From assembly GCA_965230895.1 (NCBI GenBank), contig OZ246394.1, positions 377,316-441,315 of the forward strand: a stretch of 64,000 bases of DNA, written 5' to 3'. Source of the stretch: an uncultured Gammaproteobacteria bacterium. Lineage in GTDB: Bacteria; Patescibacteriota; Microgenomatia; Levybacterales; UBA12049. Below, in pieces: positions 4,546 to 42,732 of the stretch. The translations under genes and the position numbers were made by a program. How positions within the stretch are numbered: position 1 is the first letter of the stretch; every line of letters begins with the position of its first letter. Under the pieces are notes generated by a model. That model ran no database searches, was not told the DNA's origin, and worked only from the letters and a program-made list of their open reading frames with translations.

Positions 4546-5130
4546 TTAGTTATCCTCGATATAATACCGGATTTCGCCTTTTGATGGTTCAAGGAGGTTG
4601 TAGAGATATGTAATATCTTCATCACTGTGGCGTATACATCCAGAGCTACCAGGATCTTGATCTGTTAGTCTTTCAGGTACTCCTGCAACTCCATGTAATC
4701 CGAAATCACCTGGTCGTACCCAATCGCATTGGCCATTACACTCAAGATATGGTGATGGTCCATAGGGAGGAACGCTAGGAGCGGGTACATCAAGTGTTAT
4801 AAAATACGGTGCTGTTTCTGGATTGTTTGGCTCAGGCTGCTTTTTTGTGATAATCCAATATTCTCTGTTAAGCAATTGTGGCAGTGGTGTCGGGCGTTCA
4901 CCTGGCCTTCCCGTTTTTACCACAAACGTTTTCTTCATTTCACTTTGCTCTTTATTTCCAGGTACTCCTAAATACAATACTTCTCTTTGTGATTGGCGAT
5001 GCAGTACAAACCAATATGCTTTAGGTTGAGGTTGTTCTTGTTTGGCGAAGAATGTGGGGATGTGGGCAAGAAAAAGAAATATACTTACCACAATAAAAAG
5101 GAGGACAACGATTGAAAAGATGCGTTTCAT
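4546..5130 (-). CDS. L,D-transpeptidase (YkuD-fold) with an N-terminal membrane anchor
   Basis: TM RIFSIVVLLFIVVSIFLFLA; catalytic stretch …GDFGLHGVAGVPERLTDQDPGSSGCIRHSDEDITYLYNL (His…Ser-x-Gly-Cys-[IV]-Arg). Confidence 0.7.
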   Translation of the reverse strand: MKRIFSIVVLLFIVVSIFLFLAHIPTFFAKQEQPQPKAYWFVLHRQSQREVLYLGVPGNKEQSEMKKTFVVKTGRPGERPTPLPQLLNREYWIITKKQPEPNNPETAPYFITLDVPAPSVPPYGPSPYLECNGQCDWVRPGDFGLHGVAGVPERLTDQDPGSSGCIRHSDEDITYLYNLLEPSKGEIRYYIEDN

Positions 5131-5134
5131 GCGA

Positions 5135-6232
5135 CTACAGTGTTTCTAATGCCTTTTTTGCAGGTTCAAAGTTAGAATTATAGTAGACTGCCTGCTCAAA
5201 TTCACTTCGTGCAGCCTCTTTATTTCCTTCATTCAAATAGATCTCTCCCCGCAATTGATAGAGTTCGGAATATGCTTTATTACCATTATTTAAAATGCCT
5301 TCAGCAATTGTCAAAATTCTATCGTATTTTCCTTCTTGCATGTACGCATATAGTGGCTCATATACATACCAAAGGATTCTATCAGGCAATTGATCTTTAA
5401 TTTTGTCGTAAGACTCTACAGAATTTTTCGAATCACCTAGGTGATAGTACGCAGTAGATTTATTAAATTCGGCGTAAAAGTCATTTGAATCTTTTTCTAA
5501 ATCTTCGTTTGCACGTTTGAGAGCATTTTGATACGCTACTTTCTCATCCATATTTTCTCCAAGAATTGCACTGACTGTTGCTTCTTTTTCTTTTGGATAG
5601 ACAAGGATATAACTATAGTTAAATGGCTTCCACATTTCTTCGACCTGCTGGTATGAATATGTTAAACCCTGACCTTGATACGAATCATCTTGAGTAAAAG
5701 TTTGTGCTGCATCATCATATCCTTTAATAATTCGATAATGGCCGACATCCTCTCCTGGATTTAACCATGTACGAACCACGACCGGAATATCATTTGCAAT
5801 CAATTTCTTCAATGTTTCAATATCACCATTTGGTCGATAGATTGATTCAAAGCCATATGATTTTGCTGTTGTGACGAATTCTGTCGGGAAGACTGATTTA
5901 TCATCATCTCCACCATAAGGAAAATTGTATGGGCGCATTTTACTCGCTAATTCTTCTTGGGAGATATCGAGATTATATGAAGCAAAAACCATCGACATTG
6001 CCGCTGGACCGCAGTTGTTATATGATTGCGATACAAATTTTGTTGCAGGAAGATAATAGGACTCAGGAGGCTGAACAATATCAACTGGTTCAACGTCAAT
6101 CTGATCCTCATGCATAACTTGCTGAAGTGTTGTCAAAAGCACAGGCTTCGATTGTTGCTCGTGAGGTGTTGGCAGAACTCCTACTTGCATTGAAACAAGC
6201 GCGGAAAACATAAGTACAGGTACGATATTCAT
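5135..6232 (-). CDS. Secreted peptidase-C39-like (papain-fold) domain protein with C-terminal TPR repeats
   Basis: Signal peptide; …SQSYNNCGPAAMSMVFASYNL (C39-like catalytic Cys context); C-terminal TPR-like repeats (…AYYHLGDSKNSVESYDK…, …YQLRGEIYLNEGNKEAARSEFEQAVYYN). Confidence 0.55.
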   Translation of the reverse strand: MNIVPVLMFSALVSMQVGVLPTPHEQQSKPVLLTTLQQVMHEDQIDVEPVDIVQPPESYYLPATKFVSQSYNNCGPAAMSMVFASYNLDISQEELASKMRPYNFPYGGDDDKSVFPTEFVTTAKSYGFESIYRPNGDIETLKKLIANDIPVVVRTWLNPGEDVGHYRIIKGYDDAAQTFTQDDSYQGQGLTYSYQQVEEMWKPFNYSYILVYPKEKEATVSAILGENMDEKVAYQNALKRANEDLEKDSNDFYAEFNKSTAYYHLGDSKNSVESYDKIKDQLPDRILWYVYEPLYAYMQEGKYDRILTIAEGILNNGNKAYSELYQLRGEIYLNEGNKEAARSEFEQAVYYNSNFEPAKKALETL

Positions 6233-11028: not shown

Positions 11029-11580
11029 CTAGAATTTATCAGGATACAGTTCCTTTAAGGTTGGATTTTTTGTATCTTTTTCAGATAGTGTAGGCTCTCC
11101 TTCTACTTCCCATTTCACATTCAATGTAGGATCATTCCAAGCTAGGTTAGATTCTAGACCTGGTGCCCATTCTTGGTCGGTAAGGTACGTATAGTCAGCC
11201 TCATCACACAATACAAGATATGAATTGCCACAACCTGCAGGTACAAATACACTTTGCTTTGTTTCATCGCCAAGGATAAAAGATTCGTATTTTCCAAAGG
11301 TTGGAGATCCTTCTTTTAAGTCGACAATAACGGCCTGAATCTTGCCTCGAGTTGCGTAAATCAATTTGTTCCAAGGCGCTATATGAATGCCTCTCAGTGT
11401 ACCTTTACTTGATCGAGCATGATTTGCTTGAACAATCTTGAAAGGTTTTCCTGTCTCTTCTTCTAAATGTGGAACTCGGATTGATTCTCGGAAGAATCCT
11501 CTATCATCAGCAAACGTTGGACGGACAATTGTAAATACACCTTCTAAAGATGTTTTATTAATAAAATTTGTGGCGCTCAT
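11029..11580 (-). CDS. rmlC: dTDP-4-dehydrorhamnose 3,5-epimerase-like cupin (RmlC family)
   Basis: RmlC-like segments …FADDRGFFRE…, …QANHARSSKGTLRGIHIAP…, …SVFVPAGCGNSYLVL…; typical ~185 aa. Confidence 0.65.
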   Translation of the reverse strand: MSATNFINKTSLEGVFTIVRPTFADDRGFFRESIRVPHLEEETGKPFKIVQANHARSSKGTLRGIHIAPWNKLIYATRGKIQAVIVDLKEGSPTFGKYESFILGDETKQSVFVPAGCGNSYLVLCDEADYTYLTDQEWAPGLESNLAWNDPTLNVKWEVEGEPTLSEKDTKNPTLKELYPDKF

Positions 11581-11915
11581 AATCCTTTTGGTTTTGTCTT
11601 ACGACGTTCTATTTTACGCAATGTATACATGATTCGTTGGTCAAGATTAATATTTTTGATACGTGCGAAGCGTATGATTGCGACCAAAATATCTCCAAGT
11701 TCTTGTTCATAAGTTTCGTCTTGTTGAGCTGATACATTGGTAGGCTTGCGTCCATGTTTTGCCAGATATGCTCGAGCCATTTCTCCCAATTCTTCAACGA
11801 GACTGAGGATTAAAATAGAACCAAATTCAGGATTATTTTTCTGGTCCGCATCAATGGTTTCTAACTTTTTAAAATACTTACCAAAAGGTGAAATTCTTTT
11901 TTGAGCCATAAACAC
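11577..11915 (-). CDS. MazG-like nucleotide pyrophosphohydrolase domain protein (4-bp ATGA overlap with rmlC)
   Basis: MazG-type EExxE-like helix …SLVEELGEMARAYLAKHG… and …ELGDILVAIIRFARIKNINL. Confidence 0.55.
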   Translation of the reverse strand: MFMAQKRISPFGKYFKKLETIDADQKNNPEFGSILILSLVEELGEMARAYLAKHGRKPTNVSAQQDETYEQELGDILVAIIRFARIKNINLDQRIMYTLRKIERRKTKPKGL

Positions 11916-11983
11916 TTTTAACTCTACTCTTTATCGATTATGTTGTCAATTATGGTATTTCTGCAAAAAATGTCCTATACTTT

Positions 11984-21884: not shown

Positions 21885-22550
21885 TTGAACAAAATTATGG
21901 CAGACTTTTCATCACAATCAACTTTCAACCAACCATCTTCGTTTTCGAATAATTCGAACTTCAACAACAGTAAGAAATCAAAAAAGTTTTTCAGTAGTAA
22001 GTATATGCCTTTTATCGTCGTTATCGCGGTAGTCGGACTTATTGGTATTTTTGCAGTGAACAATGCAATGCAGAGCAACGCATCAGCTCCATCAGTTCTT
22101 TCAGCAAACAAAAAAGTCGATATTGAAAAGCCAGTTGCACAACAAACATTAAACAGAAGTTTCAGTTTCCCTTTGCGTGATGCAGCAGGAAAAGAAGTCA
22201 GTCAATTAAAATATGAAATCCAAAATGCTGAGTTGCGAGATGAAATTGTTGTCAAAGGACAAAGAGCTACAGCGGTTCAAGGAAGAACGTTTCTTATTCT
22301 TAATTTAAAGATAACAAATAATTATGACAAATCAATCCAATTAAATTCAAAAGATTATGTTCGATTGATCGTTGGAAGTTCACCTGAGCAACTTGCAGCA
22401 GATATTCATAATGACCCAGTCGATGTTCAAGCTATCTCCACAAAATATACTCGTCTCGGATTCCCCATCAATGATGACGAGAAGTCATTAACTATCCAGG
22501 TTGGTGAAATAACTGGAAAGAAAGAACTTATCAAATTAGATCTTAAGTAA
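21885..22550 (+). CDS. Membrane-anchored DUF4352-like β-sandwich protein
   Basis: Asn/Ser-rich N-terminus, TM MPFIVVIAVVGLIGIFAV, then …GRTFLILNLKITNNYDKSIQLNSKDYVRLI… typical of DUF4352. Confidence 0.45.
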   Translation: MNKIMADFSSQSTFNQPSSFSNNSNFNNSKKSKKFFSSKYMPFIVVIAVVGLIGIFAVNNAMQSNASAPSVLSANKKVDIEKPVAQQTLNRSFSFPLRDAAGKEVSQLKYEIQNAELRDEIVVKGQRATAVQGRTFLILNLKITNNYDKSIQLNSKDYVRLIVGSSPEQLAADIHNDPVDVQAISTKYTRLGFPINDDEKSLTIQVGEITGKKELIKLDLK

Positions 22551-22600: not shown

Positions 22601-22783
22601 ATGAGAGATTATTCATCCAAACAAGTAAGTACCCAACTCCTCGAAGAAATTGTTGACGCGTTAAAAAACATCCGCGGTTGGGGTAGTGTTGAGATTTTTG
22701 TCCAAGATCATAAAGTAGTTCAAATCGTTGAAAGAAATATTAAGAAGACAAATAATTTAGCGCAAAATTCAGTAAAGCAATAA
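22601..22783 (+). CDS. YezD-like small protein (DUF2292)
   Basis: 60 aa; …NIRGWGSVEIFVQDHKVVQIVERNIKK… resembles the YezD core. Confidence 0.4.
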   Translation: MRDYSSKQVSTQLLEEIVDALKNIRGWGSVEIFVQDHKVVQIVERNIKKTNNLAQNSVKQ

Positions 22784-23288
22784 CCTCTTCTATATTGATC
22801 TTAATTTGAGTTCAATTTCTCGCGTTCACAAAATATGCTCTATTTCATCAATTTAGCCTCAAAATTTTAGGGTATTGACAAGGTTAGGACGGGTAAGATA
22901 TAGTTAGATCTGTTACAGGGTTACACGGGTTACGTAAAGATTTAATCAGACGCTGACCGCACACGGAGGCATCTATTCGTTATTAGGCTTATTCGCTTAA
23001 TAAGGAATAGGTGTCTTTTTTTGTACGAAATTTTAGTGAATCTGGTTACGTAAAATAAGTAATCATTTATAAGGGTTTGTTACAAAATACCATGAGAAAG
23101 AACTATTCATTAGTAAATTTTGCTGTACGATCAAATGAATCATACCGTTTGGAAACAACGGAGATGCTTGTATCTAAGTAGTTAGGTGCAAACATTTCCG
23201 TTTTTTTGGTCTTAGGGCTCAATCAGGCGGATGAAGTGCTCCGAATAATATCGGAGATCATTTATCAGGAAAGGAGGTGACAATATAT

Positions 23289-24536
23289 ATGACATACACA
23301 AAACGTATTACAACAGCTATCGCAACGGGCGCAGTCTTAGTCAATGCTTTAGCACCTGTCGCATTCGCGCAGGAAATAACTGTTAGTGGAAATGGTGCAT
23401 TCTCAGATAGTGCAGTTAACGTTTCTAACAACAGTAGTACATCAGTTAACCAGTCAAATAATGCAAATGTTGTTAACAAAGTTTCATCAAACGCAAACTC
23501 AGGTGGTAACTCTTCAAAGTTCAACACAGGAGGTTCAACAAACATTACAACTGGTAAAGCCGTAACAGACACAACAGTAAGTAATTCACTTAACATGAAC
23601 AGTGCAAGTGTTTCTGACTGTGGTGCATGCACAGGTGGAGCTGATGTTAAAGTTCAAGGTAACGGAGCCTATTCTGACAATGGTGTCAGTCTTAACAATA
23701 ATAAATCCGTAAGTTTGAACCAAAACAATAATGCAAACGTCAAAAATTTCATTGAATCAAATGCAAATTCAGGAAAGAACGATTCAAAGTTCAATACTGG
23801 TGGCGATAACAGCATTAAAACTGGATTAGCAGGATCAGTCGTTAACGTTACAACAAAAGCAAATGCAAATGTTGCAACAATCGGCGGCGGTAATGGTAGT
23901 CTCGGTGGTTCAAGTGTTGTCATCGGAGGCCCTAGTGCAACTGATGGTAACGGAGCATTCAGTGATAATGGTGTAGCTTTGAATGGAAATTCAGCAGTTG
24001 TTCTTTCACAAGACAACTCAGCTAGTATCAAAAATATCGTTGATGCGAACTCCAACTCAGGTAAAAACGACTCAAAGTTCAATACTGCTGGCGACAACAG
24101 TATTGTAGCTGGAGATGCAGTAACTGATGTTGCAGTAGATAATGCTGCAAACTTCAATTTTGCATCAGTCGATTGTGACTGTGTACTTGGAGAAGATGTA
24201 GCGGTAACAATCGAAGGTAATGGTGCTAAATCTCTTAACGAGATTGGAGCTTCATTAAACCACGCATTGGTAAACGCTCAAGATAATAATGCTCATCTTT
24301 GGAATGAGGTAGACGGAAATGCTAAATCTGGTCACAACGACTCAGCATTTGGTACAGGTGGAGATAACGATGTTACTGCAGGTGGGTCTTACTCAACTAC
24401 AGCCGTTAACAACGCTGGAAACGCTAACTTCTTCAACAATGGAGCAAGTATGCATCTTCCAGGAAATTGGGAAATGAATGTAGATTTTGATCTATCAGAT
24501 CTATTATCAAGTCTCAATCACTGGTTAGTAGCGTAA
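23289..24536 (+). CDS. Secreted Asn-rich repeat protein A (4 × ~80-aa repeats; predicted β-solenoid-like); RBS AGGAGGTG 23273-23279, start ATG 23289
   Basis: Signal peptide …AIATGAVLVNALAPVAFAQE; repeat GNGA(F/Y)SDN-V-LN-N-SV-L-Q-NNANV-N-V-SNANSG-N-SKFNTGGDNSI-TG-AVTD four times. Confidence 0.7.
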   Translation: MTYTKRITTAIATGAVLVNALAPVAFAQEITVSGNGAFSDSAVNVSNNSSTSVNQSNNANVVNKVSSNANSGGNSSKFNTGGSTNITTGKAVTDTTVSNSLNMNSASVSDCGACTGGADVKVQGNGAYSDNGVSLNNNKSVSLNQNNNANVKNFIESNANSGKNDSKFNTGGDNSIKTGLAGSVVNVTTKANANVATIGGGNGSLGGSSVVIGGPSATDGNGAFSDNGVALNGNSAVVLSQDNSASIKNIVDANSNSGKNDSKFNTAGDNSIVAGDAVTDVAVDNAANFNFASVDCDCVLGEDVAVTIEGNGAKSLNEIGASLNHALVNAQDNNAHLWNEVDGNAKSGHNDSAFGTGGDNDVTAGGSYSTTAVNNAGNANFFNNGASMHLPGNWEMNVDFDLSDLLSSLNHWLVA

Positions 24537-24623
24537 TCTTTGATTGGTAGTGGTGTCTTACTGGCACTTCGGTAAGGCACCCTACCTCAGAGTTTAAAAG
24601 AATAAGAAAAAAAAGATACTAAT

Positions 24624-26873
24624 ATGAAACAAATACTTAAAAAAACACTAGCAATAACTATGATGGCAATCGTGATGTTCGTACAAACGACACCAGTAAT
24701 TGTCCATGCTGAAGATGCTGTAACACCAACAGCGGTTCCTTCACCAACGCAACAACCTGAGCCAACTCAACAGGCGACTCCAACAAGTACACCGCAAACA
24801 ACGGTTGCTCCATCACCTACTGCAAAACCATTGACACCAGAAGAGCAAAAAGCAAAAGAACGTGATGAGCGAGAAAAGCAAAGAAAAGCAGCTGAAGAAG
24901 CTTGGGTAGCAAATTATAATGCAAATAAAAATAAGACTCAAAATAGCCAGGGTTCAGGGACTGGATCAACTTCAAACGGAAATAATGGAAGTACTGCAAT
25001 TAACACAGGCAATGCTACCAATAATAGTGCAACTGTCACGAACGGAAATACAAATGCAGCGGCAAATGGTTCCGGTGCAGTGGTCGGAACAAGTCCGACT
25101 GGAGCAACAATCGCAAACACAAATAATGGTGCAGGTTCTTTAAACAATGGTTCATCAGCTGCTGTTTCAAACAATACTACAAACCAAAACAATAGTGCTT
25201 CAGTAATAAATGAAGCGACGCAATCAGCAACAACTGGGGACAATCAAGCGTCTTTCAATAATGGAGATACAAAAATAAAAACAGGTAATGCTAACGTTTC
25301 AGGAACAGCGATTACTGCAGTAAATACCAATGTCGATGGAGTCATGGTTTCGGAATTTAACTTCGCTGATGATCACAAAGGCGACTTCGTCCTCACCCAA
25401 GAAGCATTTAACCAGAATTGCACAATGGGATGTGGTGGCTACCCTGCAAACGTCGCAAATACTGGCAATGGTGCAGATTCGACAAACACTGCAAGTAATT
25501 CTTCACAAGCAAATAACAATTTGAATCAAACCAATAACGCAAATGTTGGAAATAACATGACACTCACAGCAAACACTGGAAATAATGATGCAAGCATGAA
25601 TACTGGTGGCAATTCCTCAATCGAAACAGGTGACGCAAATATCAACGCGAATGCACTCACCTTTGCCAACAATAATATTAGTGGCAACGTGAACTTCGGA
25701 GTCGTAAATATCTACGGAAACTTTGAAGGAGACATCATACTCCCTGAATTCTCAAGCGGACCAGTAAGCGGTACAACAGTAGCAAACACAAATAATGGCG
25801 CGGGTTCTGATAATACAGTCCTTTCCGATAGTAGTACAAACGGGAATACGTTCCAAGGAAATAATGTGACTATTAATAATGATTTGGTCTTGAATGGAAC
25901 AACTGGAAATAATAACGCGGACTACAATACAGGCGGAAATTCAAATATCACAACTGGAAACACAAATGTAGATGCAAATGTGCTCAATATTGCGAACACA
26001 AATATAACTGGCGGTAACTATTGGTTGGTATTCGTAAACCAAGCTGGTAATTGGATAGGAAAATTGATCGGTGCTCCAGATGGAAGTACTATGGCAGCGT
26101 CAACTGGAATGGAATTATCTTACGGACCAGACGGACAGGTAGTTGCGACCAATAATGGCGTTTCCAACACAGGAAATGGTGCTATGTCCAATAATGCTGC
26201 AAGCAATTCATCTCAGACAAGTAATAATACCAACCAAACGAACAATGGCGTGATTAACAATACTATGAATTTGAATGCAAATACAGGCGGAAACAGTACT
26301 AATTTCAATACGGGTGGAAACAATTCGATCCAAACTGGAGATGCAAATATCATCGCGACCATGGTCAACTTTGTAAACAATAACATTGTTGGCAATGGTA
26401 AATTAAATGTTGTCTTCGTTAACTTGTTCGAAGGTGCAAAATGGACTGGTGACTTTGTACTCCCTGGCCAACAACAGCGACCAAAGACAACACCTACACC
26501 AGTTCCGAACCAAGGCTCAATTGCAGCAAACAGTGATTCTAAAAATACACAATCTGGAAGTACCGTTTCAAATGAAAAGACTACAGATCAGACCAAAGTT
26601 GTTGTAGATCCGAAAACTGGTTCAACAGCAATCACGAAATCAACAACATTCTCAGGATCAAAAGTTTCAAGTAAGAGTATCGAAAATAATTCAGAAACAA
26701 AAGTAGCGGGCGCACAGGCTACAAATGAAAACTTGCTAGTAAAAGCTATGCAAGGAGACGAAGTAAGTAAGAAAAAACTATCACTTAACTTAGCATGGTT
26801 TTTAGTTGCTCTTCCAGTCTTTGGATTCCTGCTCTTCGGCAAGAAACTTATTGCCAAAAGGTTTGCAAAATAA
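24624..26873 (+). CDS. Secreted Asn-rich repeat protein B (paralog of A) with a Pro/Thr linker, 3 larger repeats and a C-terminal TM + Lys-rich tail
   Basis: Signal peptide; PT-rich linker; repeats …NTGGNSSIETGDANI…ILPEFS, …NTGGNSNITTGNTNV…, …NTGGNNSIQTGDANI…FVLPGQ; C-terminus …LAWFLVALPVFGFLLFGKKLIAKRFAK. Confidence 0.7.
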   Translation: MKQILKKTLAITMMAIVMFVQTTPVIVHAEDAVTPTAVPSPTQQPEPTQQATPTSTPQTTVAPSPTAKPLTPEEQKAKERDEREKQRKAAEEAWVANYNANKNKTQNSQGSGTGSTSNGNNGSTAINTGNATNNSATVTNGNTNAAANGSGAVVGTSPTGATIANTNNGAGSLNNGSSAAVSNNTTNQNNSASVINEATQSATTGDNQASFNNGDTKIKTGNANVSGTAITAVNTNVDGVMVSEFNFADDHKGDFVLTQEAFNQNCTMGCGGYPANVANTGNGADSTNTASNSSQANNNLNQTNNANVGNNMTLTANTGNNDASMNTGGNSSIETGDANINANALTFANNNISGNVNFGVVNIYGNFEGDIILPEFSSGPVSGTTVANTNNGAGSDNTVLSDSSTNGNTFQGNNVTINNDLVLNGTTGNNNADYNTGGNSNITTGNTNVDANVLNIANTNITGGNYWLVFVNQAGNWIGKLIGAPDGSTMAASTGMELSYGPDGQVVATNNGVSNTGNGAMSNNAASNSSQTSNNTNQTNNGVINNTMNLNANTGGNSTNFNTGGNNSIQTGDANIIATMVNFVNNNIVGNGKLNVVFVNLFEGAKWTGDFVLPGQQQRPKTTPTPVPNQGSIAANSDSKNTQSGSTVSNEKTTDQTKVVVDPKTGSTAITKSTTFSGSKVSSKSIENNSETKVAGAQATNENLLVKAMQGDEVSKKKLSLNLAWFLVALPVFGFLLFGKKLIAKRFAK

Positions 26874-26924: not shown

Positions 26925-27746
26925 ATGATTAAAAAAATATATACACTAACATTCTTCATTTCTTCAACATTATTGTTGACTCTTTTTTTTGCGCCTCTTG
27001 CGAGTGCTCAAGAGAATGAAACAAAGCCTATTCAACCATTATTCGCAGGTACAATTGCTACGTTCGAGAAGATATCTCCTTCAAATACTCCAATACAAAC
27101 AGATCCCGTAACAGCACCAGTTCTTGCTATGAACGAAGTGGGTTCTTATCATATAACAACTCCAGCCATTCAGATAGAACCTACTAAGCCCGCTACAGTG
27201 CAAGTATCGACAGACAAGGCTACGCAAAGCGCAAATGTGAACGTTCTAGAAAAGAGTACAAATATAGATATTTCTACTGACCCAGCAATAGATAATGCAA
27301 CCTCTCTAAAAATTGAAACCACTGAAAGCACCAGTAATTTTATAAATACAAACGATACAAGTATTGTTGAATCGGCAACGAAGGATAATAAAAGCTTGAA
27401 CTATACTGAAGGGTTTACAAACACATCAAATCAAATTCATAATCTTGAATTTATAACAGCACCTGTTTATTATTCTTCCGATTGCGCTTGTAACCGCGAA
27501 GATAGTCCCCCATTTCCATATGACAATTCTTCTCCCCTCCATACGCAATCAGCACTATTGAACATAAGTGGTCCAACAATTGTGCCTGTTGTTGGAGACA
27601 TTGTTGCGGCTGTCTTATTCCCAACCGAACCAATCAATGTTAACTTCCTTGTTCTAGCGCTCTTTGGAAATATAATGATGCTTTTACTTCGCTCGTACTT
27701 AAGACTGCGATCCGGGCGATCTCCAGCATACAGATTACCCTTGTAA
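26925..27746 (+). CDS. Secreted hypothetical protein with a C-terminal hydrophobic segment + Arg-rich tail
   Basis: Signal peptide …LTLFFAPLASAQE; C-terminus …PTEPINVNFLVLALFGNIMMLLLRSYLRLRSGRSPAYRLPL. Confidence 0.5.
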   Translation: MIKKIYTLTFFISSTLLLTLFFAPLASAQENETKPIQPLFAGTIATFEKISPSNTPIQTDPVTAPVLAMNEVGSYHITTPAIQIEPTKPATVQVSTDKATQSANVNVLEKSTNIDISTDPAIDNATSLKIETTESTSNFINTNDTSIVESATKDNKSLNYTEGFTNTSNQIHNLEFITAPVYYSSDCACNREDSPPFPYDNSSPLHTQSALLNISGPTIVPVVGDIVAAVLFPTEPINVNFLVLALFGNIMMLLLRSYLRLRSGRSPAYRLPL

Positions 27747-27803: not shown

Positions 27804-28805
27804 ATGCCTCTACCTGAACAAAGAACTTTTTCAAATATTCGAGAACGTTTTACTGATCCTTCTATAACAATTATATATAACGATAATGCTGGAATATCTA
27901 AGAAAAATCCTCTGAAAGCTGCATCATTTCGCCATAAGATTCGGTCTCTCCATCATTTATTAAACAGCCCTGAGGCTTTTGACCTTGATATTAATTTACA
28001 ACCCACAAAAAGTGCCAACCATGCTATTGATGAAGTAGGTAAAGCTATCGATCAAGGAAGAGGTGCAATCGCTGTGGTTGGAGGAGATGGAACAATTGCA
28101 CCAATAGCACATCGTTTAGCTGTCGAAACTGCTGATCGAAAACCAGATTTATTACTACTCGGCGGAGGCACGCAGAATATTTTTAGAAGAGAAGTTTCAA
28201 AAAGAAGCGACCCTATCCAAGTTGCTATAGATGTTCTCCAAAATGGTGAGCGAAAAGCCATAGATGTAGGAGTTCTTCAAAGCAATGATAAAGCATATCC
28301 ATTTGTCGCAAATGGTGGATTTGGACTCGACGCCCAAGTCATGGAATTTTGGGAGAGAGCCGGCAAAAAACATCGCGGGCAAATTTTCCCACTCTTTTGG
28401 AAGGAAAGAAATAATTTCCAACCTTTTTCTTTGCATATAGTCGATGAGCAAACGAACGTAGATGAAGTCTTCGACAACGTTATCGCTATGCCCATTATAA
28501 ATGCTGGAAAATATGGTGGCTTTTTCAAGTTAACAGAAAGTGATAAATCAGATGGCATTTTAGAAGGAGTTGTTCTCCCTGCCGATCTAAGAAAACCTCA
28601 AGAGTTTATGCATATGCTTCCGAAAGTTCTCTTTTCAGGAAACGAGATTAATGGAGCAAACTATGTAGAGTTAAGGCAAGCAACATTAAGAGAAACCCAA
28701 GGAGAAGAATTATTATTTCAACATGATGGAGAACCTGTACGAGCTGATTCTTCTGAAGTATCAGTAACAACGTTACATCAAAGTGTCACCATTTGGGCTG
28801 CATAA
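27804..28805 (+). CDS. Lipid kinase of the diacylglycerol-kinase catalytic-domain family (YegS/BmrU/DagK-like)
   Basis: …ITIIYNDNAG…, …AIAVVGGDGTIAPIAHRL… (GGDGT), …LLLLGGGTQNIF…. Confidence 0.7.
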   Translation: MPLPEQRTFSNIRERFTDPSITIIYNDNAGISKKNPLKAASFRHKIRSLHHLLNSPEAFDLDINLQPTKSANHAIDEVGKAIDQGRGAIAVVGGDGTIAPIAHRLAVETADRKPDLLLLGGGTQNIFRREVSKRSDPIQVAIDVLQNGERKAIDVGVLQSNDKAYPFVANGGFGLDAQVMEFWERAGKKHRGQIFPLFWKERNNFQPFSLHIVDEQTNVDEVFDNVIAMPIINAGKYGGFFKLTESDKSDGILEGVVLPADLRKPQEFMHMLPKVLFSGNEINGANYVELRQATLRETQGEELLFQHDGEPVRADSSEVSVTTLHQSVTIWAA

Positions 28806-30566
28806 TTAGTTTGAGGAAAGGAGTTGCTTAACCGATTTATATCCAGGGCGAGGAAGCATATCTGACCCATAGAGACCATCAATACCTGTTTTGATACTGC
28901 TATCATCGTCCTTCCAGAAATTATATCTGTCCGACAGGATCCATATTCTCCAAGCAACACAATTAGCTTCAGATAGACATGTTTGTAAGACAGAAGCATA
29001 TTGCTCAGCCTGCACCCTATCTCCGTCACCACTAAAAACATCTTGCTCAGATACTTGTGCTATATAGCCTAACTTCTGAAGCTGCTGCAAATGCTTCTTT
29101 AATATTTGCGGATCAACTTTATCTTCACTCTCGTAGATATGGGACTGAAAACCAACGCCCACTTGTTTGACGGGAATACCTCTTTCTTCAAGCTGTGGTT
29201 TAAGTCGGGTTAAAAGTGCAACCATTGCATCCCAACGTTCGCCATCATCCTCAAGTCCAAATTCATTGATAAAAAGTCTGGCATTTGGATTCGTATTATG
29301 CGCTGTATCCAAAGCTTCAATGATAAAGTCTTCGCCCATTGCCTGATACCACTTTGTATTTCTCATAAGTTGACCTTCTTCAAACTCATCATAATCTGCT
29401 AACGGTTCATTTATAACATCCCAGGAATTAATTTTATTTCCAAAGTGTCCGACTACTGTTTCAATATGATCATTCATAATGTTTTCGATCACATCTTTCT
29501 CATTTTGTGTGGCTGCTGGCAATTGGTTAAACCAGGCAGGGTTTGCTTCTCCAAACACAAGTGCATGCCCATGTACTTTCATATTATTTTGCTCAGCTAT
29601 TTGTACTAAAGCATCAGCTTTGGCAAAAGAATACACACCACGTTTTGGTTGGAGATTAATCATCTTCATATCATTTTCAGGAGTCATCCCTCCAAAATCG
29701 CTAAGCGCGGCTTTAGCATATTGCGGATCAGAAACAAGCGGACCCAATGCCATCGCACTGCCAATCGTAAAGTCCTGTCTTTTTTTATTTGCAAGTTGCT
29801 GCAAGCTTTCCGTTGAAGAGTGATCTACTTTTATAGTTGCTCCATCAGCAAGGACAAATGAATTATTCTTAAGTTCAAGGCTCTGGAGACCCCATGCTTT
29901 ATCTTGCGCATCAAGGCCAAACCATATTTTACCTAACTTAAAGATGCCCGGATCATTGATGGTTCCAACTTCTTGCTTATTCACGATAAAAGTAAAGATG
30001 TTAGATTTCTTCTGAATCGTCAATTGCATGGTTCCAGCAGGCGTATATTTAAATTCGCGGACAGCTGTAGGGTTTTGGTTCGTTCCATCCCAAACTTTTA
30101 CAACCAATGAGCTCTTCGTAACAGCAACTTGGATGCTTTCACGCTCAATACGGAATTCGTCCGCTATAATTGGAACATTTCCGTAGAGTTGGATTGTCCC
30201 TGAGGCACTATCCTGCAAGTCAATCTTGCTTATAACAGAAAAGTCACCTTTAAGGTTTTCGATATGTGTTCCTGCAAGATTAATGGGTAGATTTTTTTGT
30301 ACAACTTTACCCTCTTGGTCAACGATACTAGTGTCTAAAGGTTGCACTTCCAAGCCGTTCTCAGTTTTTTGAACACCTGGCATATACTTCCAGTTTGCAT
30401 TTAATAAATTGTCATCTTTTTCAATTGGTTGTTTTTGATAATTCACAGTTGGGCTTCCTTTCTTCTCAAATTGAGCTGTAATTATACCTGCTGCGAGTAA
30501 CAGCACTCCTCCTGCAAGCAATAAAATACGATATTTCGTGTTGTCGAGTTTTTGTTTGTTTTTCAT
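28806..30566 (-). CDS. Membrane-anchored clan GH-A glycoside hydrolase, GH10 (xylanase)-like, with an N-terminal β-sandwich region
   Basis: Signal-anchor YRILLLAGGVLLLAAGIITA; …VHGHALVFGE…, …WDVINEPL… (acid/base Glu), …FINEFGLE… (nucleophile region, slightly atypical). Confidence 0.65.
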   Translation of the reverse strand: MKNKQKLDNTKYRILLLAGGVLLLAAGIITAQFEKKGSPTVNYQKQPIEKDDNLLNANWKYMPGVQKTENGLEVQPLDTSIVDQEGKVVQKNLPINLAGTHIENLKGDFSVISKIDLQDSASGTIQLYGNVPIIADEFRIERESIQVAVTKSSLVVKVWDGTNQNPTAVREFKYTPAGTMQLTIQKKSNIFTFIVNKQEVGTINDPGIFKLGKIWFGLDAQDKAWGLQSLELKNNSFVLADGATIKVDHSSTESLQQLANKKRQDFTIGSAMALGPLVSDPQYAKAALSDFGGMTPENDMKMINLQPKRGVYSFAKADALVQIAEQNNMKVHGHALVFGEANPAWFNQLPAATQNEKDVIENIMNDHIETVVGHFGNKINSWDVINEPLADYDEFEEGQLMRNTKWYQAMGEDFIIEALDTAHNTNPNARLFINEFGLEDDGERWDAMVALLTRLKPQLEERGIPVKQVGVGFQSHIYESEDKVDPQILKKHLQQLQKLGYIAQVSEQDVFSGDGDRVQAEQYASVLQTCLSEANCVAWRIWILSDRYNFWKDDDSSIKTGIDGLYGSDMLPRPGYKSVKQLLSSN

Positions 30567-30687
30567 AATTTTGCTCTACTTTATTATTATCCTGTTATAA
30601 AATATAGTAAAGAGGACAGATACGGATAGCCGTAAAAGCAGGTATATAGTATACCATATTTAGCCTCGACAACCTAATTGGGAGGGT

Positions 30688-31308
30688 TTATTTCGTTTCA
30701 ATACTGACAAGTTCTGCTCGAACCATGTGTCTGTAAATATCATTTGGTCCATCACATGTGATCAAAGTCACTGATGGTTTTTCTGTGGGATAAAAAACAT
30801 CAACTTGTGTAGGTTTGATTGTTTTGATAGTGGTTACTTTATATGTGGCCTTGTAATTTTTTCCGTACAAGACGATTTCTTGTCCGACTTTAACATCTTT
30901 AATTGGGAGAAAAGCATTTGCCTGTGCGTGTCCAAAAAGACCGACATTACCATCTTTGGTATTTACCAAACTTGTACCTTCTGCATAGTTCGCTACTGCT
31001 GGTTGTACTTCCCACGTCCCGTTTTTAAGTGGTACTGAAACAACTTTCTTATCCAATTTAATACTCTCGATAACGATTCGTTCTGGTTTAAATGTTTTGT
31101 TCTTTACAGCGTCTTCAGTTGTTTCAGTACCACAATCAGTTGTGCAGGCATTGGTCTGTGTTTGCCACGACAAACCCTGCACCCATTCTGAAATGTTACT
31201 TCCATTGAAGAATTCATTCTTCAAAGAGCCTAACTGTATCAGTGAAGCTAGGACTGTGATTGTTAGTATCACAGCAAACGTATTCAGTTTCATGCGTAAA
31301 ACTTTCAT
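30688..31308 (-). CDS. Sortase (intact catalytic triad)
   Basis: N-terminal TM; His in …GNVGLFGHAQ…, Cys in …TLITCDG… (TLxTC), Arg in …YRHMVRAEL…. Confidence 0.8.
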   Translation of the reverse strand: MKVLRMKLNTFAVILTITVLASLIQLGSLKNEFFNGSNISEWVQGLSWQTQTNACTTDCGTETTEDAVKNKTFKPERIVIESIKLDKKVVSVPLKNGTWEVQPAVANYAEGTSLVNTKDGNVGLFGHAQANAFLPIKDVKVGQEIVLYGKNYKATYKVTTIKTIKPTQVDVFYPTEKPSVTLITCDGPNDIYRHMVRAELVSIETK

Positions 31309-31313
31309 AAACC

Positions 31314-31493
31314 TTATTTGTTGAACATGTAACGACTGATATGTCCTACCAACATAATAAGTAATAATGTATTTACAGCGACAAATCCAACCGCAATAAG
31401 TGGGTGCACTTTGTCAGCAAGCATAAGACCTGCGGCTGATGTAGCTGGTAATGTTGTTGCTGCTCCTACTAATCCTTTTCCATATTCGTTCAT
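31314..31493 (-). CDS. 59-aa mini-protein consisting of a short N-tail plus a complete LPXTG-like sorting signal (MNEYGKGLVGAATTLPATSAAG-TM-ISRYMFNK); not in the ORF track (<60 aa)
   Basis: Translated by hand from the minus strand; paralog of the 61-aa ORF at 42746-42931 with invariant YGKG, LPATSAAG and ISRY; sits between GT2 and sortase. Confidence 0.5.
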   Translation of the reverse strand: MNEYGKGLVGAATTLPATSAAGLMLADKVHPLIAVGFVAVNTLLLIMLVGHISRYMFNK

Positions 31494-31534
31494 AATCTAA
31501 TCACCTCCTTCTTGACTCGCCCTAAGGGCGGGTA

Positions 31535-32833
31535 TTACCTGGTTCCCCAGGCTGTTGAGTAACCAACTCTACGAAACGCAGAGTGGCCAAGCGAAATTAT
31601 ATAAGTAAGTGTCGAAAGGATAGATTTGGTCACGATATTGTAGAAATAAAATAAATATGAGCCAAACAATACCAGACTTAAGAAGTTGCTATAAATAAAT
31701 TCTGGTAATATAGAGAGTTTTATCAACCAATCGTTCGTATCACGATCAGCATACTCACGCATAACTATGATGTTATAAATTGTTGAAATAGCAAAACTAC
31801 CCCATGCCAGGAAAATAAGTACAGGAATTAAGCCTTGTGTTCGTGTATAGCTATCAGCAAACATAAACGACAGACCAACCAATACAAACAAACTTAAGAA
31901 AGAAGCATGGCCGACAAAATCTTGAAAGACTGAAGGAATATTTCTCCAATGCTGAGCAAGGACGTGCAAACCACCGCTTGTCCAACGTGCTCGTTGCTTC
32001 CAAAGTGCTTCTGCAGTTTCTGGTACCTCTGTCCATGCAATTGCTTTTTTAGCAATTTTTACTTCCCAACCTTGTATCTTCAATCGTGCTGTAATGTCAT
32101 AATCTTCAATCAAATGACCTGTACTAAATCCATTAATTGATTCAAGCACTTCCATTCGGAAAGCTGTAAGCATTCCTTGCATGACCAATGGCCCTTTCAA
32201 GAAGCCATTATCTGAGATTTTGGTGATATTAAAGCCATGATACTCGAGTCCTTGGAGACGAGTTACTATGTTTTTATTCTTATTTGTAATTCTGACTTGG
32301 GAGCAAACGGCTCCAATTTTATAACTTGAGAATAATGTGTTTACCATATTTGGTATCGTTTCTTTATTGATGACTACATCATCATCGAAGGTGAATACCG
32401 CATCAGGCTTAATAGCAAGTGATTGGAGATATTCAATTCCATAATTTAACGCACCAGCTTTTAAGGTGTTTTTCGGAGTTCGTAGAGAAACTATCTGAAG
32501 ATTGTTCGCTGCGAGCCAATTAATCTTACTGAGCACAGGTGCTGTATCAACGTTTAAAGGAGTACAATCATCGACTACTACTACAAGTACTTTTGAATGG
32601 TATTTTACGATTGATTCAACGAGTTGTACGGTCATTTCACTCGGACGGAAGGTCGGGATAATGACTGCTACGTTTTTTCTTGAGAAGACTGATCTTGTAT
32701 GTATACTTACTGGCTTTTTCGGCACAAAGAAATGGCCGACCTGTGCGACTGTTTCTATAAGGTTCTGGTTTAATTTAGTCTTACGATTCATACTATGAGT
32801 CGTATTATAACCTATAATAATGTGGATTGTCAA
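31535..32833 (-). CDS. Processive family-2 glycosyltransferase (IcaA/PgaC/NodC/cellulose-synthase-like), membrane-embedded
   Basis: …AVIIPTFRP…, DxD …FTFDDDVV…, QxxRW …WKQRARWTSGGL…; 4-5 C-terminal TM helices. Confidence 0.8.
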   Translation of the reverse strand: MTIHIIIGYNTTHSMNRKTKLNQNLIETVAQVGHFFVPKKPVSIHTRSVFSRKNVAVIIPTFRPSEMTVQLVESIVKYHSKVLVVVVDDCTPLNVDTAPVLSKINWLAANNLQIVSLRTPKNTLKAGALNYGIEYLQSLAIKPDAVFTFDDDVVINKETIPNMVNTLFSSYKIGAVCSQVRITNKNKNIVTRLQGLEYHGFNITKISDNGFLKGPLVMQGMLTAFRMEVLESINGFSTGHLIEDYDITARLKIQGWEVKIAKKAIAWTEVPETAEALWKQRARWTSGGLHVLAQHWRNIPSVFQDFVGHASFLSLFVLVGLSFMFADSYTRTQGLIPVLIFLAWGSFAISTIYNIIVMREYADRDTNDWLIKLSILPEFIYSNFLSLVLFGSYLFYFYNIVTKSILSTLTYIISLGHSAFRRVGYSTAWGTR

Positions 32834-42141: not shown

Positions 42142-42732
42142 TTATTTTTCGTTAGAAAGTTCTATCTTTACTAATGCAGCTTTTACAATATATTGCTTGT
42201 TCGAGAACGTTTCATCTGATGTAACAAGAGTCAAAATAGGTGTTTTTGTTGGTGCAAAAACATTTGTATCTGTTGTTTTTGCCAATCTTGAAGAAGTTAC
42301 TTTATATGTTGCTTTTTGACCGTTACCATAGACTACAATTTCAGTATTATTATTAAGTTGTTGGATTCGAGTAAATCCATCAAGTCTATCGTTTGCAAAA
42401 AGTCCAACGTTTCCTTCTTTATCATTGACCAAGCTTGTGCCTTCAGCAAAGTTGGCAACATGTGGAAGAAGCTCCCAAGTACCATCTCTTAATGGTACTG
42501 AAAATACTGGAAGGTCAATTTCTACAGAAGAGATAACGATTCGTTCAGGAGTGAAAGCTGATAATGTCTTAACAGGAGTAACTGTTGGTGTCTTTGATGC
42601 AAATGGCGTTGCTGTCAATTCTTGAGAATTAGCTACAGTAGATGACACACCAGTACCAAGCGCACCAAGTTGCGCGATACTAGCAAAAGCCGCCAAAACA
42701 AAAATAGTTGTATAAACACTTACTTTCTTCAT
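42142..42732 (-). CDS. Sortase-fold paralog with all three catalytic residues substituted (degenerate / pseudo-sortase)
   Basis: Aligns along its length with the sortase at 30688-31308, but GLFGHAQ→GLFANDR (His→Asn), TLITCDG→TLVTSDE (Cys→Ser), VRAEL→VKAAL (Arg→Lys). Confidence 0.7.
   Translation of the reverse strand: MKKVSVYTTIFVLAAFASIAQLGALGTGVSSTVANSQELTATPFASKTPTVTPVKTLSAFTPERIVISSVEIDLPVFSVPLRDGTWELLPHVANFAEGTSLVNDKEGNVGLFANDRLDGFTRIQQLNNNTEIVVYGNGQKATYKVTSSRLAKTTDTNVFAPTKTPILTLVTSDETFSNKQYIVKAALVKIELSNEK

Follow-up and report, generated by a model that had tools for sequence, protein, structure and literature searches.

In Streptomyces, the long chaplins ChpA to ChpC are reportedly anchored by sortase and the short chaplins ChpD to ChpH secreted, and the two sets are thought to co-assemble into amyloid-like material tethered to the wall (reported by Claessen et al. 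and Elliot et al., both in 2003). In curli, a secreted major subunit, CsgA, has a cell-associated paralogue, CsgB, with the same imperfect repeats, which are rich in Asn, Gln, Gly, Ser and Ala and are proposed to stack as the rungs of a cross-beta solenoid. In the Fap system, one imperfect repeat of FapC makes one cross-beta layer, with conservation of Asn and Gln at the arcs and covariation of core residues from repeat to repeat (PMC12392863). Here we describe a locus that resembles these systems in a 64-kb stretch of DNA (the window; positions 377,316 to 441,315 of contig OZ246394.1, assembly GCA_965230895.1) from an uncultured bacterium of the Microgenomates, a lineage of the candidate phyla radiation (CPR). 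The locus contains two tandem genes, A and B, whose products, one secreted and the other membrane anchored, are built from the same repeat of about 90 residues.

Our results go beyond the original prediction for this locus in that A and B are the core of a six- to seven-gene cluster of Microgenomates and in that A has the hallmarks of a highly expressed major subunit. A and B, together with two further proteins encoded by the cluster in relatives, C and D, are four paralogues with one repeat in common but with different anchoring: A and D are anchor-less, B carries a transmembrane (TM) segment, and C carries a sortase signal. On balance we think it probable that the four proteins form a surface assembly of the Microgenomates, in which abundant subunits without an anchor are held on low-copy anchored paralogues through the shared repeat.

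Comparison with described surface systems

The system appears to parallel curli, Fap and especially the chaplins in its logic, with no sequence relationship to any of them. The chaplins offer the closest logic, since their sortase-anchored, multidomain members and shorter secreted members can be likened to C (with its LPxTG motif) and B on the one hand and to A and D on the other. They differ in that A and B contain no chaplin domain (PF03777), in that chaplins are small and hydrophobic whereas A and B are large, acidic and hydrophilic, and in that the genes of the present system form one operon with a fixed order.

The likeness to curli, which would be analogy and not homology, lies in the pairing of a secreted major subunit with a cell-associated paralogue, in a composition rich in Asn, Gln, Gly, Ser and Ala, in repeats that are proposed to stack as rungs, and in the appearance of CsgA (8c50) among the top weak Foldseek matches of the models of both A and B. 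However, neither protein contains the Curlin_rpt motif (PF07012; S-X5-Q-X-G-X-G-N-X-A-X3-Q), and a profile of the A/B repeat finds no CsgA sequence in the PDB. A curli rung of strand, turn and strand spans about 19 to 23 residues, compared with a unit of about 90 residues and no shorter subperiod in A and B. Secretion genes of the CsgE/F/G type were not found in the A/B cluster, where the conserved neighbors are up245, DUF2292, C and a sortase only, and the host is a monoderm CPR bacterium, with B anchored through its TM tail and C through sortase.

The couplings that we describe below mirror the repeat-per-layer organization, the Asn/Gln and Gly of the arcs and the inter-repeat covariation of FapC. 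FapC (9u4u) was also the best Foldseek match of the A model, although this match was not significant (E 0.026, probability 0.15, TM-score 0.10 to 0.22). The differences are that FapC has three layers of 52 to 62 residues per monomer, that the Fap system has the outer-membrane channel FapF, and that FapC has no sequence similarity to A or B.

Surface proteins of the LPXTG type resemble the C protein of relatives, which has a full tripartite sorting signal and an adjacent sortase gene; sortase is reported to be near-ubiquitous in Microgenomates (PMC6744442). They differ from A, which has no anchor, from B, whose TM segment and basic tail follow an NLAW motif instead of LPxTG, and from the window's version of C (C'), which has FPTEP at this site; the cluster sortase, moreover, fits no defined class. 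As for the solenoids of ice-binding and antifreeze proteins, Pfam found no ice-binding domain (DUF3494) in A or B, Foldseek matches to ice-binding proteins had E values above 2, and the outward-facing positions are variable, unlike a regular TxT/TxN ice-binding face on short coils.

A and B are built from a previously undescribed repeat

Protein A has the following parts; the limits of the repeats come from repeat comparison and a profile hidden Markov model (HMM) of the repeat.

23289 to 24536, forward strand: protein A, 415 residues from its ATG, with a signal peptide, four repeats of about 90 residues and a conserved C-terminal tail; secreted, no anchor
23289 to 23369, forward strand: signal peptide of A, MTYTKRITTAIATGAVLVNALAPVAFA, with a putative cleavage site before QE that was read from the sequence and the family alignment; conserved to an unusual degree among A proteins
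23373 to 23642, forward strand: repeat 1 of A, with a CGAC junction at its end
23643 to 23930, forward strand: repeat 2 of A, with a Gly-rich junction
23931 to 24200, forward strand: repeat 3 of A, with a DCDC junction at its end
24201 to 24476, forward strand: repeat 4 of A, the most divergent of the four
24477 to 24533, forward strand: conserved tail of A (ending in LPGNWEMNVDFDLSDLLSSLNHWLVA), a predicted amphipathic helix with no TM segment

The start codon of A is the ATG at 23289, as the original prediction had it. A perfect Shine-Dalgarno (SD) sequence, AAAGGAGGTG, lies at 23270 to 23279, nine bases ahead of this ATG, and the GTG at 23277, which an open reading frame (ORF) finder had taken as the start, sits within the SD sequence. 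The protein is rich in Asn (17%), Ser (12%), Ala (12%) and Gly (12%); in its mature form it has a mass of 38.7 kDa, an isoelectric point of 4.3 and few cysteines, and the mature proteins are acidic (isoelectric points of 4.3 to 4.5). Its four repeats, the number originally proposed, are 36 to 51% identical to one another and are each detected by the repeat HMM at E values of 1e-25 to 1e-29; exactly four repeats were present in all 120 of the A homologues compared. The cysteines at the junctions (residues 111, 114, 296 and 298) are conserved and covary. Beyond the repeats, the conserved tail amounts to 30 residues, and in the A family it contains an FDL motif in 184 of 194 members and is hydrophobic in 2 of 194.

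Protein B is longer and more elaborate.

24624 to 26873, forward strand: protein B, 749 residues, with a signal peptide, a Pro/Thr linker, a charged helix, four repeats plus a partial unit, a Ser/Thr/Lys linker, and an NLAW motif, TM segment and Lys/Arg tail
24711 to 24938, forward strand: Pro/Thr-rich linker (residues 30 to 71) and charged helix (residues 72 to 105) of B, from the sequence and the model, in which residues 72 to 105 are helical and the linker has low confidence
25119 to 25343, forward strand: repeat 1 of B (residues ~166 to 240), repeat HMM E 9.9e-9
25452 to 25688, forward strand: repeat 2 of B (residues ~277 to 355), repeat HMM E 2.5e-12, model confidence 90 to 94
25785 to 26009, forward strand: repeat 3 of B (residues ~388 to 462), repeat HMM E 7.9e-11, model confidence ~93
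26166 to 26396, forward strand: repeat 4 of B (residues ~515 to 591), repeat HMM E 2.3e-11, model confidence ~95
26778 to 26870, forward strand: C-terminal anchor of B, with the NLAW motif, a hydrophobic helix (TM helix at residues 723 to 748) and a Lys/Arg tail; no LPxTG

The original prediction gave B three repeats. This count was too low: there are four clear copies (E values of 1e-8 to 2.5e-12), the more divergent repeat 1 having been overlooked, and a weak, partial fifth unit at residues ~97 to 155. Four repeats were found in 113 of 120 B homologues. The repeat units of B carry extra hydrophobic inserts, and a disordered linker rich in Ser, Thr and Lys follows toward the C terminus. Sequence and model both agreed with the Pro/Thr linker, the C-terminal TM segment and the Lys/Arg tail that had been read in B. 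The tail had also been described as similar to a sorting signal without LPXT(G/S), and the family bears this out, in that 197 of 201 tails combine a hydrophobic segment with Lys/Arg and 177 of 201 have NLAW, and an LPxTG-like motif was found in 0 of the 201.

The repeat is an all-beta unit of about 85 to 90 residues with no sequence relative in Pfam, NCBIfam or the PDB. Neither Pfam (for A and B, at E ≤ 1) nor NCBIfam returned anything for A, B or the relatives C and D, and the PDB sequence search gave no match with A or B singly or with a profile of 35 repeat sequences. With Foldseek likewise giving no significant match, the earlier statement that the repeat belongs to no named family still holds. 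Our search of the literature for an earlier description of the repeat or the cluster found none, and no known domain was found fused to the repeat in the atypically long members of the superfamily, where we looked for them. Within the window, the repeat HMM found no copy outside A and B.

How widely is the repeat distributed? An exhaustive profile search of 1.84 billion proteins yielded a superfamily of 2,988 cluster representatives. Full-length homologues of A (400 to 430 residues) number in the hundreds and those of B (705 to 815 residues) more than 800, and a scan with one genome per GTDB species found relatives of B in 184 genomes. The A and B families are present in no fewer than 184 species genomes. 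All hosts with informative names are Microgenomates (Levy-, Ames-, Chisholm-, Gottesman-, Roizman-, Woese- and Daviesbacteria). Many public records that contain the cluster (L004, L010 and L011 among our loci, and others) are titled "uncultured Gammaproteobacteria" and a few Methylomirabilota or Saccharimonadales; their gene content does not support these titles. All members of the family are now called "hypothetical protein" or are misnamed, and we think that the family merits an entry in Pfam or NCBIfam. The JGI names of two B homologues, "fibronectin-binding autotransporter adhesin" and "TonB" (P0182 and P0237), were rejected as unsupported by any domain match.

Could A and B lack a specific fold, either as Asn-rich proteins of biased composition that are largely disordered or as an artifact of annotation? 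Their extreme content of Asn, Ser, Thr and Gly and the moderate global confidence of their models are in keeping with this explanation, as is the presence of long antisense ORFs, which show that composition alone can produce ORF-like signals. However, both families consist of hundreds of full-length orthologues at 40 to 70% identity with invariant Asn, Gly and Gln columns; the E values of the repeat HMM reach 1e-29, the coevolution ladder described below is geometrically regular, the repeat cores of B are modeled at confidences of 90 to 95, and synteny and regulatory signals are conserved. Conservation and coevolution effectively refute the explanation, to which we assign a negligible probability.

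The antisense ORFs themselves were already listed in the original prediction and do exist on the reverse strand, at 23258 to 23632, 23669 to 24157 and 24938 to 25243. They encode 101 to 162 residues rich in Leu, Pro, Phe and Val, lie wholly within the strongly conserved sense genes A and B, and are very likely mirror products of the Asn/Gly/Thr codon bias and not genes. No tandem repeat was found in A or B at the DNA level. The protein repeats are therefore ancient and not an assembly artifact, and we rejected a recent DNA-level duplication on the same grounds. An enrichment of N-glycosylation sequons was also rejected (12 in A, compared with 13.6 ± 3.0 expected; 27 in B, compared with 27.1 ± 4.4 expected).

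A conserved cluster encodes four paralogues with three modes of anchoring

Synteny was determined in 80 loci fetched at the species level. The order up245, DUF2292, A, B, C and sortase, often followed by D on the opposite strand, was present in roughly 60 of the 80, a count that is approximate. The corresponding genes in the window, apart from A and B, are as follows.

21885 to 22550, forward strand: up221 ("up245"), a protein with an N-terminal TM segment and a weakly DUF4352-like ectodomain (weak Pfam match only); first conserved gene of the cluster
22601 to 22783, forward strand: DUF2292 (YezD-like) small protein of ~60 residues (PF10055, E 6.5e-8); second conserved gene
26925 to 27746, forward strand: C', a degenerate orthologue of the LPxTG protein C, in which the DCAC junction and the YLRLRSGRSP tail are kept and the repeats lost
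30688 to 31308, reverse strand: nearest sortase (PF04203, E 9.6e-19; TIGR01076 above cutoff), not adjacent to the cluster and only presumptively linked to it

The up245 and DUF2292 genes lie upstream of A in nearly all loci, and the window's copy of up245 is 54 to 60% identical to its orthologues in L001 and L002. All four paralogues begin with an N-terminal signal peptide. C has three repeats, or one, and ends in a canonical C-terminal sorting signal: LPxTG in 46 of 68 sequences and LSxT[SA] or LAxT[AS] in about a dozen more, followed by a hydrophobic segment and a tail of the RLRSGRSP type. D, a protein of ~200 residues, consists of a signal peptide and two repeats with a CxC motif between them, ends in GGSNxLNP and has no anchor (for example, L012 13895 to 14509 and L017 13322 to 13924, both on the reverse strand; some 38 further loci encode it). 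A resembles a tandem duplication of such a two-repeat unit. In L002, genes for a DsbA-like protein and DsbB lie directly upstream of the cluster (5011 to 6159), and these, together with the conserved junction cysteines, fit an extracytoplasmic location.

In most relatives, a gene with a Pfam sortase domain adjoins the cluster, and the motifs point to C as the true LPxTG substrate of the system, a role for which the window's copy is degenerate. C' is 42% identical to the last 91 residues of the C protein of L003 (E 5e-17), and the repeat HMM gives it an E value of only 2. The closest relative, L004, whose B is 79% identical, likewise has no adjacent sortase, and its gene at 11284 to 11967 has LPTNG where the window has FPTEP. 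A second sortase gene of the window lies at 42142 to 42732 on the reverse strand. The repeat HMM found no D gene in the window.

The genes beside the sortase could also be taken to encode a sortase-polymerized pilus in which A would be the shaft pilin and B or C the basal pilin. Three to four structural genes next to a sortase gene recall the pilus islets of Gram-positive bacteria, an LP-GNW stretch in the tail of A resembles the LPxTGNNW of C, and the cluster sortase is nearest to classes C and D. The sortase similarities are below threshold, at 55 to 66 bits compared with a class cutoff of 160 (for class C, 62 to 66 bits). Moreover, A and D have neither a hydrophobic segment nor a basic tail (a hydrophobic tail being present in 2 of 194 A proteins, as noted above), so that a membrane sortase has no canonical means of retaining and processing them, and LPxTG is absent from all 201 B tails. 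Pfam and NCBIfam detected no CnaB or Ig-like pilin domains, and in the window A and B are kept with neither a sortase next to them nor a working C. We regard a pilus as very unlikely, since sorting signals are missing from A, B and D.

Each repeat may be one wide rung of a cross-beta solenoid

AlphaFold models of A and B, built with family alignments, were both all-beta. For A, the mean predicted local distance difference test (pLDDT) score was 60.8 and the repeat cores reached 75 to 84; for B, the mean was 64.6 and the cores reached 90 to 95. The original prediction had named a model without ordered structure as grounds for refutation, and in both proteins the repeat cores are ordered. DSSP assigned one continuous strand of 28 to 33 residues to the equivalent site of each repeat, followed by shorter strands, and the strand breaks fall at the conserved TGGN, FNTGG, TGDA and NxN motifs. 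Foldseek searches of both models against the PDB and BFVD gave no match at E ≤ 0.001, the best E value being that of FapC. Every weak match, for A or for B, was a parallel beta-solenoid, with FapC and CsgA at the top and SRRP, PfbA, pectate and alginate lyases, SufBD, Ag43, ice-binding proteins and RTX proteins among the others.

Residue couplings provided evidence independent of AlphaFold. Direct coupling analysis (DCA) of 962 repeat units revealed a clean antiparallel ladder (i + j = 100 to 102) running from positions 23/76 to positions 46/54. The couplings of this ladder are limited to the conserved face of small residues and Asn (odd positions), and the variable face has no long-range coupling. 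A ladder confined to one face fits strands packed face to face, as in a beta-arch, better than it fits a hydrogen-bonded hairpin. No coupling of constant offset, as expected of parallel strands, was found within the repeat; thus, if the fold is a solenoid, the whole repeat would be one rung.

A second DCA, of full-length A (about 290 sequences; effective number, 250), was dominated by couplings between the same columns of different repeats. The ±2 register signal was 0.10 to 0.19 for adjacent repeats and 0.05 to 0.09 for nonadjacent repeats, a difference of about twofold. In addition, it showed a small arch at the GNGA loop (offset 13), and the junction cysteines C110 and C287 were coupled.

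Taken together, these data suggest with moderate confidence a flattened cross-beta solenoid in which every repeat makes up one wide rung, and we consider this the most likely fold. The beta-solenoid put forward in the original prediction thus gained from the weak matches, which were to solenoids only, from the long strands at equivalent sites and from the couplings; it is plausible, and its rung would be the entire repeat of ~90 residues instead of a short coil. Our first reading of the ladder, a very long hydrogen-bonded beta-hairpin that would argue against a solenoid, was dropped because only the inward face couples, because the strands are continuous over 28 to 33 residues, and because the weak fold matches are all parallel solenoids.

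A and D carry the signals of highly expressed genes

The noncoding DNA around A contains the following features, all on the forward strand.

22875 to 22904, forward strand: candidate sigma-70-like promoter, TTGACA-18-TATAGT, the best in the spacer between DUF2292 and A (11 of 12 consensus matches)
22965 to 23022, forward strand: terminator-type hairpin with U7 in the A leader (ΔG −33 kcal/mol, z −8.5)
23157 to 23206, forward strand: second terminator-type hairpin with U7 in the A leader (ΔG −26.3 kcal/mol, z −5.7); other loci also contain the CCGTTTTT feature
23233 to 23256, forward strand: GAAGUG and stem-loop element of the A leader, ~55 nt upstream of the ATG
24538 to 24592, forward strand: stem-loop directly after the A stop codon (ΔG −32 kcal/mol, z −6.4)

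Across the loci, the strength of these signals separates A and D from their neighbors. An SD match of at least 5 nt precedes 92% of A genes and 89% of D genes, compared with 8% each of B, C and sortase genes, 4% of up245 genes and 14% of DUF2292 genes. Similarly, a 3′ stem-loop (ΔG ≤ −20 kcal/mol within 70 nt of the stop codon; 74 A and 40 D genes from loci L001 to L082) follows 99% of A and 80% of D genes, compared with 2% of B, 10% of C, 3% of up245 and 7% of DUF2292 genes. The stem-loop after A suggests a partial terminator or a stabilizer of the mRNA 3′ end.

The intergenic region ahead of A is long, with a median of ~320 nt across loci and ~500 nt in the window. Just ahead of the gene, the motif GAAGUG followed by a stem-loop of 6 to 10 bp is present in 26 of 29 Microgenomates loci; the stems differ and their complementarity is kept, and each of the 18 tested elements was more stable than its dinucleotide shuffles (z −1.4 to −3.7). 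The element was not found upstream of D, and no Rfam family matches the A leader. It may be a 5′ hairpin that stabilizes the mRNA or a processing site. Farther upstream, the promoter-like site and the two U7 hairpins could represent a small RNA, a leader of the attenuator type or a terminator belonging to the upstream operon. The leader also contains two copies of GGTTACGTAA, which includes the palindrome TTACGTAA, at 22928 to 22937 and 23044 to 23053 (forward strand; 116 nt apart), with GTTAC recurring several more times near them; judged by their sequence, these repeats may be a putative regulator-binding site.

A strong SD sequence together with stem-loops on the 5′ and 3′ sides is what one would expect of an A message that is abundant, stable and largely monocistronic, with limited read-through into the genes for the anchored proteins. 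That strong SD sequences and 3′ stem-loops mark A and D alone argues that these two proteins would be the abundant subunits and that B and C would be low-copy anchors.

Such an architecture is also a known property of S-layer genes. A, together with D, could accordingly be a two-dimensional S-layer protein tethered by B to the membrane and by C to the wall. An acidic mature protein of about 39 kDa with few cysteines and a lineage-wide distribution would suit this role, S-layers were reportedly seen on ultra-small groundwater cells (Luef et al. in 2015), and a coupling between the GNGA loop and the FNTGG tip, to which we return below, could be a lateral contact in a lattice. The role would also fall in a part of CPR biology, the envelope, that is stated to be unresolved (PMC5220378). 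However, Pfam and NCBIfam found no SLH, CWB2 or similar S-layer or anchoring domain; a one-dimensional fiber would be the more natural product of a cross-beta stack; and covalent or TM anchors on paralogous proteins would be unusual for S-layers. We consider an S-layer of this kind rather improbable.

A model for assembly on the cell surface

On the basis of these observations, we favor the surface assembly of abundant, anchor-less subunits on anchored paralogues outlined at the outset, which would work as follows. All four proteins would be exported by their Sec signal peptides. B, carried on long spacers of flexible or helical character, would be kept in the membrane by the TM helix at its C terminus, and in most lineages C would be joined covalently to peptidoglycan by the neighboring sortase. 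A and D, made in large excess, would associate with the anchored paralogues and with one another by way of the repeat, in homotypic or heterotypic assembly. In each rung of a flattened two-sheet cross-beta solenoid, small residues and Asn would face inward and the Gly/Asn motifs GNGA, TGGN, FNTGG and TGDA would form arcs; stacking of A and D rungs edge to edge would then build a fiber or layer, possibly amyloid-like, on the cell. In both A and D, the repeat begins straight after the signal peptide with no N-terminal cap, which makes rung-on-rung stacking plausible. The structure may serve the envelope itself or attachment to hosts or surfaces.

Several observations weigh against this model. 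Same-column coupling is no weaker for nonadjacent repeats (0.98 between repeats 1 and 3) than for adjacent repeats (0.94 between repeats 1 and 2), and much of this signal may therefore reflect shared constraint and not contact. A second coupling ladder, between the GNGA loop and the FNTGG tip (i + j ~56), does not fit a simple rung. Global model confidence is moderate (mean pLDDT 61 to 65; predicted template modeling score, 0.51), no structural match is significant (best Foldseek E 0.026), and a rung of ~90 residues would be wider than that of any solved solenoid known to us. In the window, the LPxTG partner is degenerate, there is no D gene and no sortase is adjacent, so that assembly in this organism would have to rely on B alone. 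Finally, the strictly fixed numbers of repeats would also suit defined, monomeric proteins.

This last point leads to the view that A to D are independent, monomeric surface or secreted binding proteins, such as adhesins or lectin-like proteins, which act separately and whose repeat forms a rigid stalk or a surface for attachment to host cells or polysaccharides and no polymer. In addition to the number of repeats being strictly fixed in each family, the divergent repeat 4 and helical tail of A could cap a monomer, the outward-facing positions are variable as in evolving binding surfaces, and the beta-solenoid adhesins SRRP, PfbA and Ag43 are among the weak Foldseek matches. For CPR bacteria, an episymbiotic lifestyle that requires attachment factors is widely inferred (PMC11623550). 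However, this view leaves unexplained why one operon should hold four paralogues with three anchoring modes and why signatures of high expression should be confined to the two proteins without an anchor. It also has to contend with the uncapped rung that A and D would present after signal-peptide cleavage and with the lack of any known binding domain fused to the repeat anywhere in the superfamily, as judged from its atypically long members. We regard monomeric binding proteins as a possible but unlikely explanation.

A bolder form of the assembly model makes A and D the building block of a surface layer or sheath of the Microgenomates (OP11), with the functional-amyloid-like, wide-rung cross-beta tape templated on B and C. 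This proposal is speculative, and we hold it to be doubtful. If it is true, the system would be an independently evolved, sortase-tethered equivalent of curli in a monoderm host, and its product would be a hallmark of the envelope in a major CPR lineage.

CPR organisms are almost all uncultured. With its Microgenomates-wide occurrence, its lack of an annotated family and the marks of a structural gene expressed at a very high level, the cluster offers a specific, clonable candidate for the main protein structure on the cell surface of a large bacterial lineage. How the CPR cell envelope is built and formed has explicitly been described as unclear (PMC5220378). Should the model hold, the wide-rung solenoid would extend the range of beta-solenoid and functional-amyloid architectures, the system would be an independent case of a secreted major subunit that assembles on anchored paralogues, and its proteins would provide a marker and antigen for imaging Microgenomates cells and their contacts with hosts.

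Genes downstream of the cluster

Beyond C', the window continues with a lipid kinase of the DAGK family at 27804 to 28805 and, on the reverse strand, a membrane-anchored, GH10 xylanase-like protein at 28806 to 30566. Farther downstream, and also on the reverse strand, are the nearest sortase (listed above) and a GT2 glycosyltransferase at 31535 to 32833. This neighborhood (27804 to 32833) is envelope related and is common to the window and L004.

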